A stretch of 59,689 bases of DNA, filler included, from 6 parts of 6 records of this genome joined end to end with filler, not necessarily neighbours in it, one strand, 5' to 3'; counted from the first letter of the whole stretch, positions 52,761 through 59,689 are shown. Numbers and translations are program-made. The notes: a model not told the origin generated them from the sequence alone.

Positions 52761-54107
52761 TTAAAAGGCAACACCTGCTTCAAAGACTACAGAATCTCTA
52801 CTTTTGATCCCGTTATCACCTACACCGCTTGTATTGAAGAAAATATGATCATATTCGAGTTTATACCACATACCACAGTCGAATTTATAAAGTGCAGCTA
52901 CTCTTCCTCTGATATTGGTGCTTTCGATATGAGAGGTGTTGTTTGTGCCGGTTATTACGGTCTTATAAAGTTCATTGCCTGTGTTGAGCATCCCGATATC
53001 ACCACCTGCAGCAATTTTGAATCTTTCAGTTATGGCGTAATCTCCACCTATTGAAACACACCAGGCTGAGGTGTCAGAGTAAAAATTTCTGCCTAGGTTG
53101 TAGTCGGCTTCAATATATAAAGAATATTTATCCTGAATATAAGCAGCACCTATGTCGAATTGCGGGTTATAACCTGTACCTCGACGATCTGCTTGAGTGG
53201 ATACTCCCTGACCGATATCAATATTTCCAATATAAGTCAAAGCGAAATTGAGACCCTCAACAAATGCAGGCATATATTCAAACATCAAAGAGTGGTTCAT
53301 AACACCATTATTGCGGACATCACCATTACTTGACAGGATAGAACCGGAATTGTTAGCATCATAGCCGATGAGCAGGTCATTTGGAGAGCCAAGATCGGTA
53401 TCTGAGAATATAGTGCCGGTAATGATGTACTGGTCTTTAGTGTAGCGGAGTTTTATGCCCATACGTTTGATATCGTCATTTGGGTTGTCGGAAGCGCTCC
53501 TGTCCTCGGAAGAGTAGACAAAGCTGAAGCTTTTTGTGCCGGGGTTGGTTATGAAAACATTTCCCCATGGATTAAAGCTGCTTGAGTACATACCTCCGGG
53601 AATGCCAGTAAAACCAACCTCTGTACCGAAGTTTGTGCCGGCAATGTTATTCCAGTAGAAATAGGCTTTGTCAAATTTATTTGGTCTGATATCAATAAAA
53701 GCGCCTAGATCGTCATTCATTGCAATATTAAAAGTTAGAGAAGGGGTGTCAAAGTCCCAGCCGATTCTATCAGCGTATTCACCACCGAAAGGTTTGTTGC
53801 TGCCTACTTTTTCGTAATAATATTTAAAATCAGCATAATACCTCACTGCAAGTGTTCCGCCAATTTGAACCGTGGCATTATTGCCTTTTGTGCGTAGTGC
53901 TTCAGGTGCACCTCCAGCACTATCTCTGAGTTCTTCTCTTTCCTGATCATATTGTTTTTTCAGAATATTCATATCCTCCTGCATCTCTGTGAGCGCTGTT
54001 TTGAACTGGCGTAGTTCTGTAGAGTGACTGTCCTCAGCATAGCTGCTTGAAGTCATGCAGGAAATAAGGGTTAGTAAAGAAAATGATATTGCTTTTGCGA
54101 ACTTCAT
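52761..54107 (-). CDS. Outer-membrane beta-barrel (porin-like) protein with an N-terminal coiled coil
   Basis: Signal peptide (..SSYA), coiled coil, alternating beta strands, C-terminal ..FEAGVAF. Confidence 0.7.
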   Translation of the reverse strand: MKFAKAISFSLLTLISCMTSSSYAEDSHSTELRQFKTALTEMQEDMNILKKQYDQEREELRDSAGGAPEALRTKGNNATVQIGGTLAVRYYADFKYYYEKVGSNKPFGGEYADRIGWDFDTPSLTFNIAMNDDLGAFIDIRPNKFDKAYFYWNNIAGTNFGTEVGFTGIPGGMYSSSFNPWGNVFITNPGTKSFSFVYSSEDRSASDNPNDDIKRMGIKLRYTKDQYIITGTIFSDTDLGSPNDLLIGYDANNSGSILSSNGDVRNNGVMNHSLMFEYMPAFVEGLNFALTYIGNIDIGQGVSTQADRRGTGYNPQFDIGAAYIQDKYSLYIEADYNLGRNFYSDTSAWCVSIGGDYAITERFKIAAGGDIGMLNTGNELYKTVITGTNNTSHIESTNIRGRVAALYKFDCGMWYKLEYDHIFFNTSGVGDNGIKSRDSVVFEAGVAF

Positions 54108-54258
54108 AAGTTTTCCTAAGCTAATTGAATAATGATAATTAAAAAGCGATTTTTTGTAATCATACATGACTGGGAAGATTTTTGAAAGTATAAATTAGAA
54201 TAAAACATTTTTTATTGTATAATTGATTTATGAGAGAAAATAGCTATAACATGGTAAT

Positions 54259-56141: not shown

Positions 56142-56927
56142 ATGTCAATCAATTCCAGAAAACATCAAGATGAGTCAAAGTTGAGAAGTGAGCGTCTTGC
56201 ATATGTAGGGGCTCTGGCTGCAGGGCTGGTGCATGAGGTGCGTACTCCGCTCCATGCAATACAGCTCAATGCACAGCTGCTGGCTGAGGATGCGGCTAAT
56301 CTTCCCGAAGATTGTTCGCAGAAATTTTCTCGTCGCAGTCAGCGTATCTTCTCTGAGGTAAAAGCTCTCTCAAAAACTTTGGAAATGTTTCTCACTTTTG
56401 CCAGACCACCTCGCATGGATCCTGAACCGCTCGACCTCAATAGGTTTCTGCGAGAGTTATGTGAATTTGTACAGCCGGAGATGGATGAGAATGGGGTTGA
56501 GTTGGAGACCCATCTTGCTCCGGATATGTATCCTGTAGTAATTGATCAGAATCAGTTTACTCATGTTATTCTCAATCTACTGCGTAACGCCAATGAGGCT
56601 ATAGATCAACGTCGTGATATTGGTGATGATTTTGAAGGCGTTGTCAAGCTGTCAACTTTTGAGGAGGATAAGACTATACGTATAGAAGTTGAGGATAATG
56701 GTATAGGGATTAATCCAGAGAATGAAGATAAGATTTTTGAGGTTTTTTATACTACTAAAGAAAAAGGTACAGGTCTTGGTCTTGGTATTGTCAATCGTAT
56801 AATAGAAGATCATCGCGGGGCAATCAAAGTGATGAGTAAGGATACTCATGGGGCTATTTTTAATATTATTCTGCCACGTGGTTATCTGATTGCTTCCAGT
56901 GATCTGGCTGGTGAGGAAGAAAATTAA
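56142..56927 (+). CDS. Sensor-less NtrB-like histidine kinase
   Basis: ERLAYVGALAAGLVHEVRTPL, NLLRNA, DNGIGI and FYTTKEKGTGLGL; only about 15 aa precede the DHp helix. Confidence 0.9.
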   Translation: MSINSRKHQDESKLRSERLAYVGALAAGLVHEVRTPLHAIQLNAQLLAEDAANLPEDCSQKFSRRSQRIFSEVKALSKTLEMFLTFARPPRMDPEPLDLNRFLRELCEFVQPEMDENGVELETHLAPDMYPVVIDQNQFTHVILNLLRNANEAIDQRRDIGDDFEGVVKLSTFEEDKTIRIEVEDNGIGINPENEDKIFEVFYTTKEKGTGLGLGIVNRIIEDHRGAIKVMSKDTHGAIFNIILPRGYLIASSDLAGEEEN

Positions 56928-59689
56928 AAGAGAGAGATTCTTTTTTGTGGAGCAGTTTTATTTTTGCTCAGAGTAGTGGCTGCTTTATTATTTGCTAAGA
57001 AGTCAAAACTTTTTACTGTTGCAGAAGGTTGTTGTTTGGTGGAGGCTTTGGGGTTTAAATTAAAGAGTGAGCTTAGCTGTAATTGGGTACTTGAGATTTG
57101 ACCGCAGTCAATGCTGGCTGTGGTCTCTTTTTTTGCAGGAATAAGATTGTGCGAAGCCTCTGCAGGGGTTTCTGTTGCTGGAATTATTATTGCTTTTGTG
57201 ATTGGTCTGCGATTAGTCAGCTTTGGGAATAGAGCAACAAAATCTTGCGGTGCAGCGTTTTCTGTATACTTGATCTTCTTTTTAGTGAAGAGTTCAAAAT
57301 TATTTACTGGTGTTGCAGGTTTTAGTTTGATTGAAGCTTTAGGGGTGAGCCTGAAGAGTGTGCTTAGTTGTAGTTGCGTCTTGGCTATTGAAGCTGAGGC
57401 AGATGTAGTTATACCTTCTTCTTTTTTGCTGATATTATTTGCGTAAGAAAAGATCTTCTTGGTTTGAGGTATTTCAATTTTGCGTAATTTGCCACTATTT
57501 ATGTTAGCAAAAAGATGGTGTTTATACTTGTGAGTATTGTATGCTGATTCAATCTTCGCAGGTTTGTTATTGAAAAGGTCAAAATTGTTTGTTGTAATTA
57601 TATTATCTTTAATTTCAGCATTTACAGCAGAGTTATGATGATGGAAAAGAGGACTCAACTTCAGAGATGATCGTTGATGGGACTGGTTGGTTTTTTCTGG
57701 GCTGTTTTCAGTTATAACTGATTGTGAAGTTGTATCATTATTTTTCATGACTACACCAGTTGTTAGATCTGATGATTTGAATGTACGCTTTATAGGTAGA
57801 ATTGCAAATAGCGCAAAATTGTTATTAGTGCTATTTGTTTCTTTTATTTTTGGAGTATTATTGTTGAATAATACGAAACTATTTCTCTTCTCTGCAGTTT
57901 TATCTGTCGTTTTTTTTGTGTTAAATATTAGCGTACATGCAAGCTGAAGCTGCTGATATACTCTGCTTGATGCAGGAGCTTTTTTAGAAAGTTTTGTGAT
58001 ATTATCGTTGATCTGTGGCGTCACCTTGCGAGTTGTTTTGCTGAGATCAGTTTTCGGTACAGGCAATTTATATGTGCGTTTTGCGGGTAGAGTATGGAAT
58101 AGCCCAAAATTGTCGGTATTATTATTTGCTGCGTTAGTTTTTGATATAATACTATTATTGAATACCAAGAAATTATTTCTCTTCGCTGTAGGTTTGATAC
58201 TATCTCTATTTGTGTTGAATGCGAAGGCATCTGTAAGATGTTGAGGCTGAGGCGACCTGCTTGGAGTTGCTGTATCCTGTACGTCAACTTCACGGGTTGA
58301 TTCCGTGATGTTTTTTGCTGCCTGTTCAAGTTTAGAATTATCCTTTGACTTTACAGTTGTTGTCGTGATTATTTCTTTCTCGGCGTTTATGCTGCTGCTG
58401 TATTTTGTGTTGAGTAATTTAGAGAATAAAGGATAACGATTATTCTCCGCTGTTGAGAGAATATTGTGTGTGTCACATTTTAGTGTAAGAAAGTCTGAGT
58501 GTCTTTTGAGTTTAATATCTGTTGATTGTTTTAGGGATTTTAATGCAAAGATATTAGCCAGATTCAAAGGTGATTTTATAATACTCTGTCTCTCTGTCTT
58601 TACTACTTCTGTCTTATTGTATTTCTCCTGATTTTTGTGTTTTGCTTGAGAAGCAAGAACTATAGGGTGTTGTGTCTGGTTCAGCGTTGCTGGTGCTGAT
58701 AGTATTTTTCTGGGCTGTTGTATCAGTGCTGGAAATGCTGGTACTTTCCGCTGAGACAGCCTGCTGAGTTCAGCAGGTTTGTTCTTGCCAAGTATCATAG
58801 ATAGTTTGAGGCTTTGTCTTTTCACTCCTGTAGTTCTGGTGTGGTTTCTGCAGTTGCTGAAAATATTGCTGATACGTTGTGGTGAAGACGAAAGATATTT
58901 TACTGGAGTATTAGCAGAAGTTGTGAGGTTGTCTTTTTTAATGATTTTTTTATGCTCTTCTACTTCTTCTTTGAGTACGGTTTCCTGCTGAGAATTTAAT
59001 TCTTCATGATACTCGGCATAATCAATAAAGTATATCTCTGAAAAATCAACAGATTGCTGAGCGACAATTTTATTGAGGCGGATAAGTTCGAGGATAGCGA
59101 TAAAGAAACCGACCATCTCGTCTTCTGTCGGTGAGTCTGAGAGGATACTTGTAAAGCTTGCGCGCTTGCGCTGCACTACGACTTCCTCGATCTGCTGTAT
59201 TCTTACTTCTGTCGGCACTTCTTCACTGACAATCTCACGTGGAGCGTTTTCATTGAGCATTCTTCTGGCGATACGCTGGAATGCTGCAAGGAGGTCGAGC
59301 GCCCCTAGCTGCTCGGCTTTGTCTTTGACTACTGCCTTGAATTGAGGTATCTCTACATTACGTGTATAGCGCTCGCTGAACTGATCAGACATCTTTTCCA
59401 GTTCTGCGGCTACTTCCTTGAATTTTTTATATTCGAGCAAGGCTTCGACAAGTCCCTGACGTGGGTCATATATTTCGTCCTCGTCTTCATCTTCTGCTTT
59501 GACTTCCGGCAGCAGCATCCGCCCTTTTATTTCTGTCAGCATTGATGCCATAGCCAAGAATTCCCCGCCAGCATCAACATCAATTTCAGGCATTCTATTT
59601 ACTTCATTTAGATATTCTCTGGTGACATGGCTTATCGGAATATCATGAATATCTATCTCGTCACGCCTGACAAGGTAGAGCAGGAGATC
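56924..59689 (-). CDS. scpA: Segregation/condensation protein A (kleisin) with a ~700-aa C-terminal repeat extension; start lies beyond the window
   Basis: The frame stays open to the window edge and reads DLLLYLVRRDEIDIHDIPI..YL..; then GEFLAMAS..EIKGRMLLP, DPRQGLVEALLEYKKFK, and the winged-helix end FIAILELIR...QSVDFSEI. Confidence 0.9.
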   Translation of the reverse strand, partial: DLLLYLVRRDEIDIHDIPISHVTREYLNEVNRMPEIDVDAGGEFLAMASMLTEIKGRMLLPEVKAEDEDEDEIYDPRQGLVEALLEYKKFKEVAAELEKMSDQFSERYTRNVEIPQFKAVVKDKAEQLGALDLLAAFQRIARRMLNENAPREIVSEEVPTEVRIQQIEEVVVQRKRASFTSILSDSPTEDEMVGFFIAILELIRLNKIVAQQSVDFSEIYFIDYAEYHEELNSQQETVLKEEVEEHKKIIKKDNLTTSANTPVKYLSSSPQRISNIFSNCRNHTRTTGVKRQSLKLSMILGKNKPAELSRLSQRKVPAFPALIQQPRKILSAPATLNQTQHPIVLASQAKHKNQEKYNKTEVVKTERQSIIKSPLNLANIFALKSLKQSTDIKLKRHSDFLTLKCDTHNILSTAENNRYPLFSKLLNTKYSSSINAEKEIITTTTVKSKDNSKLEQAAKNITESTREVDVQDTATPSRSPQPQHLTDAFAFNTNRDSIKPTAKRNNFLVFNNSIISKTNAANNNTDNFGLFHTLPAKRTYKLPVPKTDLSKTTRKVTPQINDNITKLSKKAPASSRVYQQLQLACTLIFNTKKTTDKTAEKRNSFVLFNNNTPKIKETNSTNNNFALFAILPIKRTFKSSDLTTGVVMKNNDTTSQSVITENSPEKTNQSHQRSSLKLSPLFHHHNSAVNAEIKDNIITTNNFDLFNNKPAKIESAYNTHKYKHHLFANINSGKLRKIEIPQTKKIFSYANNISKKEEGITTSASASIAKTQLQLSTLFRLTPKASIKLKPATPVNNFELFTKKKIKYTENAAPQDFVALFPKLTNRRPITKAIIIPATETPAEASHNLIPAKKETTASIDCGQISSTQLQLSSLFNLNPKASTKQQPSATVKSFDFLANNKAATTLSKNKTAPQKRISLF

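Follow-up and report, generated by a model that had tools for sequence, protein, structure and literature searches.

The stretch of DNA analysed here, called the window throughout (59,689 nucleotides, filler included, from six parts of six records of one genome joined end to end), ends inside an scpA gene, the product of which, the kleisin of the bacterial Smc-ScpAB condensin, carries a C-terminal tail of nearly 700 residues. This tail is real and conserved, and it defines a family within one uncultured order of the Planctomycetota. Each of its units, seven in the window protein, is a small module of three short hydrophobic motifs in fixed order and with tight spacing. While the ScpA core itself belongs to a known family, we found no description of a bacterial kleisin with such a tail, which is conserved, expandable, predicted to be disordered, and studded with motifs. 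The proposed function of the tail as a multivalent tether is plausible but unproven. We tentatively favour the explanation, to which we give somewhat less than an even chance, that the tail offers several docking sites and tethers DNA at the Smc head of a canonical condensin.

The open reading frame of scpA is on the minus strand (56924-59689, with the stop codon at 56924-56926). It has 921 codons within the window and is open at the window end. Relatives begin 15 residues upstream of the first codon present. The ScpA, which a previous reading of the window (the sequence-only reading) had taken to be complete, thus lacks its 5′ end (about 15 codons), which is removed by the window edge, and the ATG at 59593 is internal to the gene and not its start. 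The Pfam family SMC_ScpA (PF02616) matches residues 6-220 with an E-value of 1e-34 (121 bits, cut-off 24.6) over profile positions 1-228 of 232. Four NCBIfam ScpA equivalog models also match (E-values from 3e-45 to 9e-34, alignments ending at residues 222-228), but all of them under their curated cut-offs (e.g. 154.6 versus 315 bits). In the AlphaFold2 model, residues 2-147 form helices and residues 160-223 show the helix-strand pattern of a winged helix, with a predicted local distance difference test score (pLDDT) of 86-93 over residues 160-230. Judged by its Pfam profile and predicted fold, the window protein is best classified as a divergent ScpA, while it is not an equivalog by the NCBIfam thresholds.

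As had been proposed, this ScpA continues in the same minus-strand frame into a tail of about 700 amino acids (aa): 693 residues follow the ScpA match (aa 229-921, from window position 59005 down to 56927). The DNA of the tail region has a G+C content of 32-39%. An open frame of 693 codons at this composition, together with the conservation in relatives described below, excludes a chance origin of the tail.

The tail contains a significant internal repeat. Its best off-diagonal local self-alignment scores 127 and pairs non-overlapping parts, units 3 and 4, while composition-preserving shuffles (n=200) scored 63.7±9.2 with a maximum of 90, so that none of the 200 reached 127. A unit profile made only of window units spread poorly (17 units) and was replaced by a 13-unit profile from the window and L001, a chromosome of a metagenome-assembled genome from the Planctomycetota. 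The final profile detected 27 units in the first pass, 13 of them seeds or near-copies and others in proteins that had not contributed to the profile, and 38 at convergence, with a unit period of about 100 aa. It matches the window tail exactly seven times, with the Phe anchors of the first motif at residues 277, 381, 489, 589, 682, 779, and 876. Both the seven units of about 100 aa with their recurring trio of motifs and the closest pairs, 3/4 and 6/7, had been recognised correctly in the sequence-only reading: the best self-alignment is that of units 3 and 4, and unit 7 is closest to unit 6 (41% identity).

The consensus derived from all 38 units reads [FL]-x-L-S-[NS]-[IP]-F for motif A, N-[KR]-F-D-[MF]-L for motif B, and F-[LP]-[KP]-L for motif C. 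The order A, B, C is invariant. The spacing is 20.3±2.1 aa from A to B (range 16-24) and 23.8±1.3 aa from B to C (range 21-26, n=36). A unit thus consists of a part of about 55 aa, which holds the three motifs, and a subsequent fast-evolving basic linker of about 50 aa. The trio recurs through the window tail, but it is not intact in every unit, as motif B is weak in unit 2 and not recognisable in unit 1. Motif C had been placed at the extreme C-terminus, and it indeed makes up the last five residues of the window protein; a hydrophobic motif is found at the very C-terminus of P0002-P0007 and P0009 as well, and two residues from the end in P0008 (these proteins are relatives introduced below). 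In the relatives, too, the first unit has a motif C of the F-P-P-L type.

The tail is basic and rich in Lys, Thr, Ser, and Asn, as had been noticed: its 693 residues include 82 K, 75 T, 67 N, and 67 S, with 107 K+R versus 51 D+E and a net charge of +54 to +56. Its probable disorder is supported by AlphaFold2, which was the basis here rather than a dedicated disorder predictor. In the model of the whole protein (22-row alignment), the block-mean pLDDT is 32-43 over residues 261-921, almost all residues from 256 onward have a pLDDT <50, and secondary structure is absent past residue 252. A single unit (13-row alignment) was modelled as coil with one 4-residue helix (predicted template modelling score 0.15, pLDDT 65.6). 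In combining the absence of predicted structure with fast evolution and conserved short anchors, the tail has the features of a disordered region with short linear motifs. It does not match a characterised repeat family in Pfam, where the only hit is TolB_N (E-value 0.047, under the cut-off), or in NCBIfam, which gives ScpA models only; the unit profile has no match among PDB sequences at E<=10, and a feature search with the tail against the Atlas clusters gave no usable match.

Homologues were searched among long proteins (506-1612 aa), which resulted in 24 long ScpA homologues of 535-1504 aa. Together with the window protein (P0001), these are P0001-P0025, nine of which bear units, 38 in all. 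P0002-P0009 (626-920 aa) share the units, and their cores are 79-94% identical to that of the window protein. The unit starts nearly coincide among the proteins (at about 274, 373, 471, 571, 672, 774, and 872). As the unit positions are conserved and the first motif C is of the F-P-P-L type throughout, the array is old and does not represent a recent local duplication.

In contrast to the cores, the tails are only 23-46% identical between family members. Phe is aligned to Phe in 27 of 33 cases between P0005 and P0006, and in 18 of 31 between P0001 and P0002. The ratio of non-synonymous to synonymous substitution rates (dN/dS) was determined for two pairs of genomes. Between G013 and G015 it is 0.05 for the core and 0.48 for the tail (279 codons), while a 79-codon tail piece beside frame breaks is near neutral with 0.84. 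Between G016 and G014 it is 0.04 for the core and 0.33 for the tail, with dS near saturation. This is the pattern expected of a disordered region with drifting linkers, in which selection acts on the short anchors. The net charge of the tails in the family ranges from +24 to +98, that of the cores from -19 to -25.

In a survey of ScpA, 80 loci were kept from 185,579 species genomes, and 77 of them could be evaluated. Only L001 (810 aa) and L002 (592 aa) have a long tail. The tail is at most 115 aa at the other 75 loci, and 28 of the 30 tails with at least 40 aa are net acidic. In the order to which the L001 genome belongs, ScpA occurs in all 37 species genomes, and tails were measured at 30 loci. 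The 26 tails of the order that could be read to the end have 25-389 aa. Five further tails run past the locus, which contains 492-493 aa of each; judged by their open frames (780-922 aa), they have a full length of about 535-680 aa. With the exception of one short tail (G013), the tails of the order are net neutral to basic and contain Phe motifs.

The exception has a 268-aa ScpA, and intact units are encoded in same-strand downstream frames. Its scpA (L099:253-2217, minus strand) is spread over three frames, in which the core is followed by 79 aa in a different frame and then by about 300 aa in the first frame again. It is a split or mis-assembled gene and not a tail-less one, which could be due to a recent disruption or to an assembly error. 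P0028 (268 aa) was considered as a tail-less close relative and rejected, as frame changes split its gene and the units downstream of them are intact. Among the close relatives, P0029 (243 aa) is also short and may be a candidate for a ScpA without the tail.

The genome closest to the window is G001, with a ScpA core that is 69% identical, and it was used as a stand-in for the genome of the window organism. According to the identity of DnaN to that of G001, there is a tight clade of six genomes (81-88%), followed by two genomes with 59-61%, while the rest have 33-44%. The length of the ScpA tail follows the same order. The window organism appears to belong to the subclade in which the extension grew to six or seven units of about 100 aa. 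The comparison of ScpA lengths thus reveals long, unit-bearing tails as a family trait within one order.

The unit is exclusive to ScpA. When searched separately, the unit profile matches only the six units of ScpA itself in the whole G001 genome (E<=1), and it has only three matches among 1.84 billion representative proteins, all of which are pieces of ScpA. Neither a long-tailed ScpA nor such modules are described in the full texts of the literature that we searched, which agrees with the earlier statement that the architecture is undescribed.

The tail is an addition to a canonical Smc-ScpAB condensin and not a substitute for a missing part. Among the 37 genomes of the order, ScpB is encoded in 34, the Smc hinge in 31 (with a Smc of about 1247 aa), ParB_N in 32, HU in 37, and DnaN in 34. 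A replacement of ScpB, ParB, or HU by the tail was considered and rejected, as all three are encoded in the order. The scpB gene does not adjoin scpA and is 2.2 Mb distant in G001.

The ScpB of the order has strongly acidic N- and C-terminal extensions, which together have a net charge of about -7 to -125 (30 genomes, L151-L179). In G001 (L081:1279-2385, minus strand), their lengths are 125 and 68 aa and their net charges -45 and -16, respectively. A polybasic ScpA tail beside polyacidic ScpB extensions suggests an electrostatic interplay, even though their lengths are uncorrelated.

According to the explanation that we favour, ScpA has gained a C-terminal intrinsically disordered, polybasic extension in one order of the Planctomycetota. 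The tail emerges from the winged helix on the Smc head and thus hangs outside the Smc-kleisin ring. Its basic linkers would hold DNA non-specifically, while each module would wrap one copy of a protein ligand, which would result in up to seven docking sites per condensin. A tight spacing amid drifting sequence would be expected for a module that binds to one surface, while independent motifs would not need it. As the module is absent from other proteins, the ligand would most economically be a part of Smc-ScpAB itself (the Smc arm, hinge, or head, or the ScpB of another complex) or, alternatively, a dedicated condensin-only partner. The restriction of the unit to ScpA also speaks against a general hub, for which the motif would be expected in other clients. 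As an effect, condensin may be clustered or anchored on the nucleoid.

A more far-reaching version is possible but doubtful. In this version, the kleisin is a seven-valent hub, with modules that would capture other Smc-ScpAB complexes or an unrecognised condensin accessory protein and would thus set the assembly or anchoring of the loop extruder. If true, prokaryotes would have evolved independently a counterpart to the docking of partners on eukaryotic kleisins, and evolution would have tuned its valency within a single order, where it ranges from one or two motifs up to seven modules.

Several points weigh against docking by the modules. No partner protein of the tail units was identified, and binding is a prediction from sequence. 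There is no operon partner beside scpA which would point to a ligand. When compared with the ScpA family profile, the unit profile matches the tail units only and not the ScpB-binding centre. The lengths of Smc, ScpB, and DnaN show no difference that tracks tail length. Covariation of the acidic ScpB extensions with ScpA tail length, considered as a candidate, was rejected (rho -0.15, p 0.54, n=19). A dN/dS of 0.33-0.84 in the tail represents a weak overall constraint. The AlphaFold2 alignments are shallow (13 and 22 rows) and leave room for a small fold. Finally, translation of the tail is a prediction, and no RNA run was listed with the sequence.

The main rival is that the tail has no specific protein ligand but is a polycation of stickers and spacers, the linkers of which bind DNA while the motifs stick weakly to each other, resulting in a histone-like compacting or a condensate-forming appendage. 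The strongly positive charge of all tails in the family and their complete disorder in prediction agree with this, as do the regular spacing of the aromatic/aliphatic stickers and the restriction of the unit to one protein. Tail length, which is continuous across the order from about 65 to about 690 aa, also behaves as expected for a dose-like property. However, generic stickers do not require three unlike motifs in fixed order, each with conserved polar residues of its own (Ser in A, Asn and Asp in B), and a standard deviation of the spacing of only 1.3-2.1 aa is more specific than they would need. Also, with HU in every genome of the order, there is no obvious gap in nucleoid proteins to be filled. 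We regard this alternative as unlikely.

DnaN had been suggested as a partner, and the motifs might be degenerate clamp-binding motifs which tie condensin to beta clamps on newly replicated DNA. The pattern x-hydrophobic-x-[LMI]-F is seen in many of the motif copies. The window tail contains 16 copies of [LMI]F as compared to 4.9 in shuffles, and three copies of Qxxx[LMI]F as compared to 0.3, numbers that were not reached in any of 300 shuffles. DnaN itself is widespread in the order, and the last motif is located at the C-terminus, as is stated for some polymerases in the available text of PMC12309361. The same text gives the clamp-binding consensus as QL[S/D]LF or QxxLF, with positions 1, 4, and 5 being critical. 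It is this pentapeptide that the tails lack: QxxLF occurs in none of the nine, so that DnaN failed the canonical motif test. The enrichment of [LMI]F is limited to P0001 and P0002 and is not found in the other seven tails, nor are the three Qxxx[LMI]F copies of the window common to the relatives. While the window tail shares with clamp clients short hydrophobic motifs with a final [LMI]-F, including one right at the C-terminus, it lacks Gln at position 1, and three unlike motif types in fixed order and spacing are not a trait of clamp clients. Two homologues of Y-family polymerases in G001 (L149:1456-2697 and L150:1489-2745, both on the plus strand) have Q-first pentapeptides resembling clamp-binding motifs, one of them near the C-terminus, and so the clamp of this lineage retains the requirement for Gln. 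The clamp version of a tether is disfavoured by these sequence comparisons and seems improbable, although a degenerate mode of binding may be conceived.

It is equally improbable that the unit of about 100 aa, or its core of 55 aa, is a small domain, folding alone or upon oligomerisation, that was missed by AlphaFold because too few sequences were available, in which case the tail would be a rod of beads on a string. The tight spacing between motifs would fit such a domain, as would the middling pLDDT of a single unit, which was obtained, like the model of the whole protein, from few alignment rows. However, the only predicted secondary structure is the one 4-residue helix, prolines directly follow several motifs, and the sequence between motifs is almost unconserved, rich in Lys, Thr, Asn, and Ser, and poor in aliphatic residues. 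The absence of matches among PDB sequences also argues against a hidden fold.

A further alternative, which we consider very improbable, is a membrane tether. The basic residues and the Phe/Leu motifs, including that at the C-terminus, would enter the inner membrane, to which condensin or the nucleoid would thereby be anchored. A polybasic tail with hydrophobic motifs, the C-terminal one of which adjoins Lys/Arg, may resemble C-terminal membrane-targeting sequences of other bacterial proteins. However, there is no strong signature of an amphipathic helix at the motifs. With a mean hydrophobicity near 0, the motifs have helical hydrophobic moments of 0.26-0.59, as compared to 0.27±0.13 on average over the tail, and the 12 windows with the highest moment are all centred away from the motifs. 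Moreover, prolines follow many motifs, and the conserved Asp of motif B is unsuited to insertion.

That the tail is an artefact (a frame fusion, a chimeric join, or untranslated read-through in an assembly) is close to refuted, even though the window ends inside the gene, parts of the gene are found in only one public run at low depth, and the gene is split in G013, because the architecture recurs, with conserved unit positions, in assemblies that are independent of each other, among them those of L001 and of four genomes that each consist of a single contig (G014-G017). Moreover, the units are intact even in the downstream frames of G013, and the open frame is as long as described. One DNA run has five small contigs that are identical to the window and cover 14 of 30 bins, with a low depth; this run is perhaps the source of the window itself. 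A contig at 58872-59022 (codons ~223-273, from the last helix into the tail) shows neither a variant nor a joint, which adds little in view of the low depth and of that possible identity.

When compared to canonical ScpA (PF02616, about 240-290 aa), the window protein has the same N-terminal helical domain, central region, and C-terminal winged helix, and Smc, ScpB, and ParB are likewise encoded in related genomes. It differs by about 690 extra residues past the winged helix, with 115 aa being the longest tail at the 75 other loci, and by a basic tail, where canonical tails are mostly acidic.

Eukaryotic kleisins (Scc1/Rad21 and the condensin kleisins) have long disordered stretches onto which partner subunits dock. 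The parallel to these, drawn in the sequence-only reading, is only partially valid. What they have in common is disordered kleisin sequence with short conserved docking motifs and a valency that is set by the kleisin. The topology differs, as the disordered region of eukaryotic kleisins is situated between the two Smc-binding domains, inside the ring, while the ScpA tail follows the C-terminal winged helix, outside the Smc-kleisin ring. There is also no sequence relation, with Pfam giving SMC_ScpA alone for the window protein. We know of no HEAT-repeat kleisin partners in bacteria.

MukF, the kleisin of MukBEF, through which the complex multimerises according to the available text of PMC5812716, is a precedent in bacteria for the control of higher-order SMC assembly by a kleisin. 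MukF dimerises by a folded N-terminal domain, whereas the candidate element in the window ScpA is a disordered C-terminal array, for which multimerisation is an assumption.

The C-terminal half of RNase E is a disordered scaffolding tail on a bacterial core protein. For IF2 and Rho, extensions are reported that differ between bacteria, Planctomycetota among them (PMC12919033 and PMC11347177). The tails of RNase E, IF2, and Rho resemble that of ScpA in being long, basic, unstructured appendages with small conserved microdomains on a housekeeping protein, while the host protein is a different one. To our knowledge, a seven-fold periodic repetition of one tripartite module does not occur in any of these tails.

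In bacteria, Smc-ScpAB is commonly regarded as a minimal loop extruder of three subunits, the kleisin of which is small, and here one whole lineage keeps a kleisin of nearly four times the usual length. The extra sequence is not junk but consists of ordered, spaced, and selectively retained motifs, which are repeated up to seven times, outside the ring. Should a protein dock onto the modules, this would be a natural system in which to study how kleisin valency controls the clustering, anchoring, or loading of SMC complexes, and it would provide a handle for fishing unknown condensin partners in the Planctomycetota, the cell biology of which is unusual for a phylum of bacteria. A tail that binds only DNA would be a new way to couple a polycation to a loop extruder. 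The graded tails within one order represent a ready-made evolutionary titration.

The scpA gene stands alone, with a divergent MarC-family gene upstream (in L001) and a convergent kinase gene downstream. The order of scpA, kinase, rpoN, and an outer-membrane barrel is common to the window and L001. A gene of the window at 52761-54167 (minus strand) codes for a 468-aa protein without a significant Pfam match (DUF2490 with an E-value of 0.012); its counterpart in L001 has a weak match to outer-membrane beta-barrel families. The features of scpA and the neighbouring kinase gene are listed in Table 1.

Table 1. Features of the scpA region. Positions are those of the window, residue numbers (aa) those of the ScpA frame as present in the window.
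Feature	Position	Strand	Basis or remark
ScpA core, aa 1-228 (N-terminal helical domain and C-terminal winged helix)	59006..59689	-	PF02616, NCBIfam, AlphaFold2; ~15 N-terminal codons beyond window
Acidic helix, aa 224-252, junction from winged helix to tail	58934..59020	-	AlphaFold2 secondary structure, pLDDT 75-89 falling to 50
Predicted disordered polybasic tail, aa 253-921, with seven tripartite units	56927..58933	-	AlphaFold2 pLDDT, composition, self-alignment
Unit 1, aa 266-327	58709..58894	-	motif A RISNIF, motif B degenerate, motif C PAFPAL
Unit 2, aa 370-430	58400..58582	-	profile and anchor alignment
Unit 3, aa 478-539	58073..58258	-	profile, anchor alignment, self-alignment
Unit 4, aa 578-636	57782..57958	-	closest to unit 3; profile, anchor alignment, self-alignment
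Unit 5, aa 671-735	57485..57679	-	profile and anchor alignment
Unit 6, aa 768-829	57203..57388	-	profile and anchor alignment
Unit 7, aa 865-921	56927..57097	-	motif C is the final five residues of the protein
Small HisKA/HATPase histidine kinase, convergent neighbour (context only)	56142..56927	+	stop overlaps scpA stop by 4 nt (56924-56927)

Two distant ScpA homologues, P0024 (1069 aa) and P0025 (1504 aa), owe their length to other reasons than units. P0024 has the amino-acid permease domains PF13520 and PF00324 together with PF02616 and may be a fusion or a gene-calling error. Within the order, long frames of 1042 aa and 568 aa were encountered around ScpB (G031:C61:24777-25274 and G024:C24:6825-7322), and a frame of 866 aa around the ScpA of G020 (G020:C27:6619-7275) has its excess upstream of the core. 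These frames hint at further extensions or fusions of ScpB and ScpA in the order.

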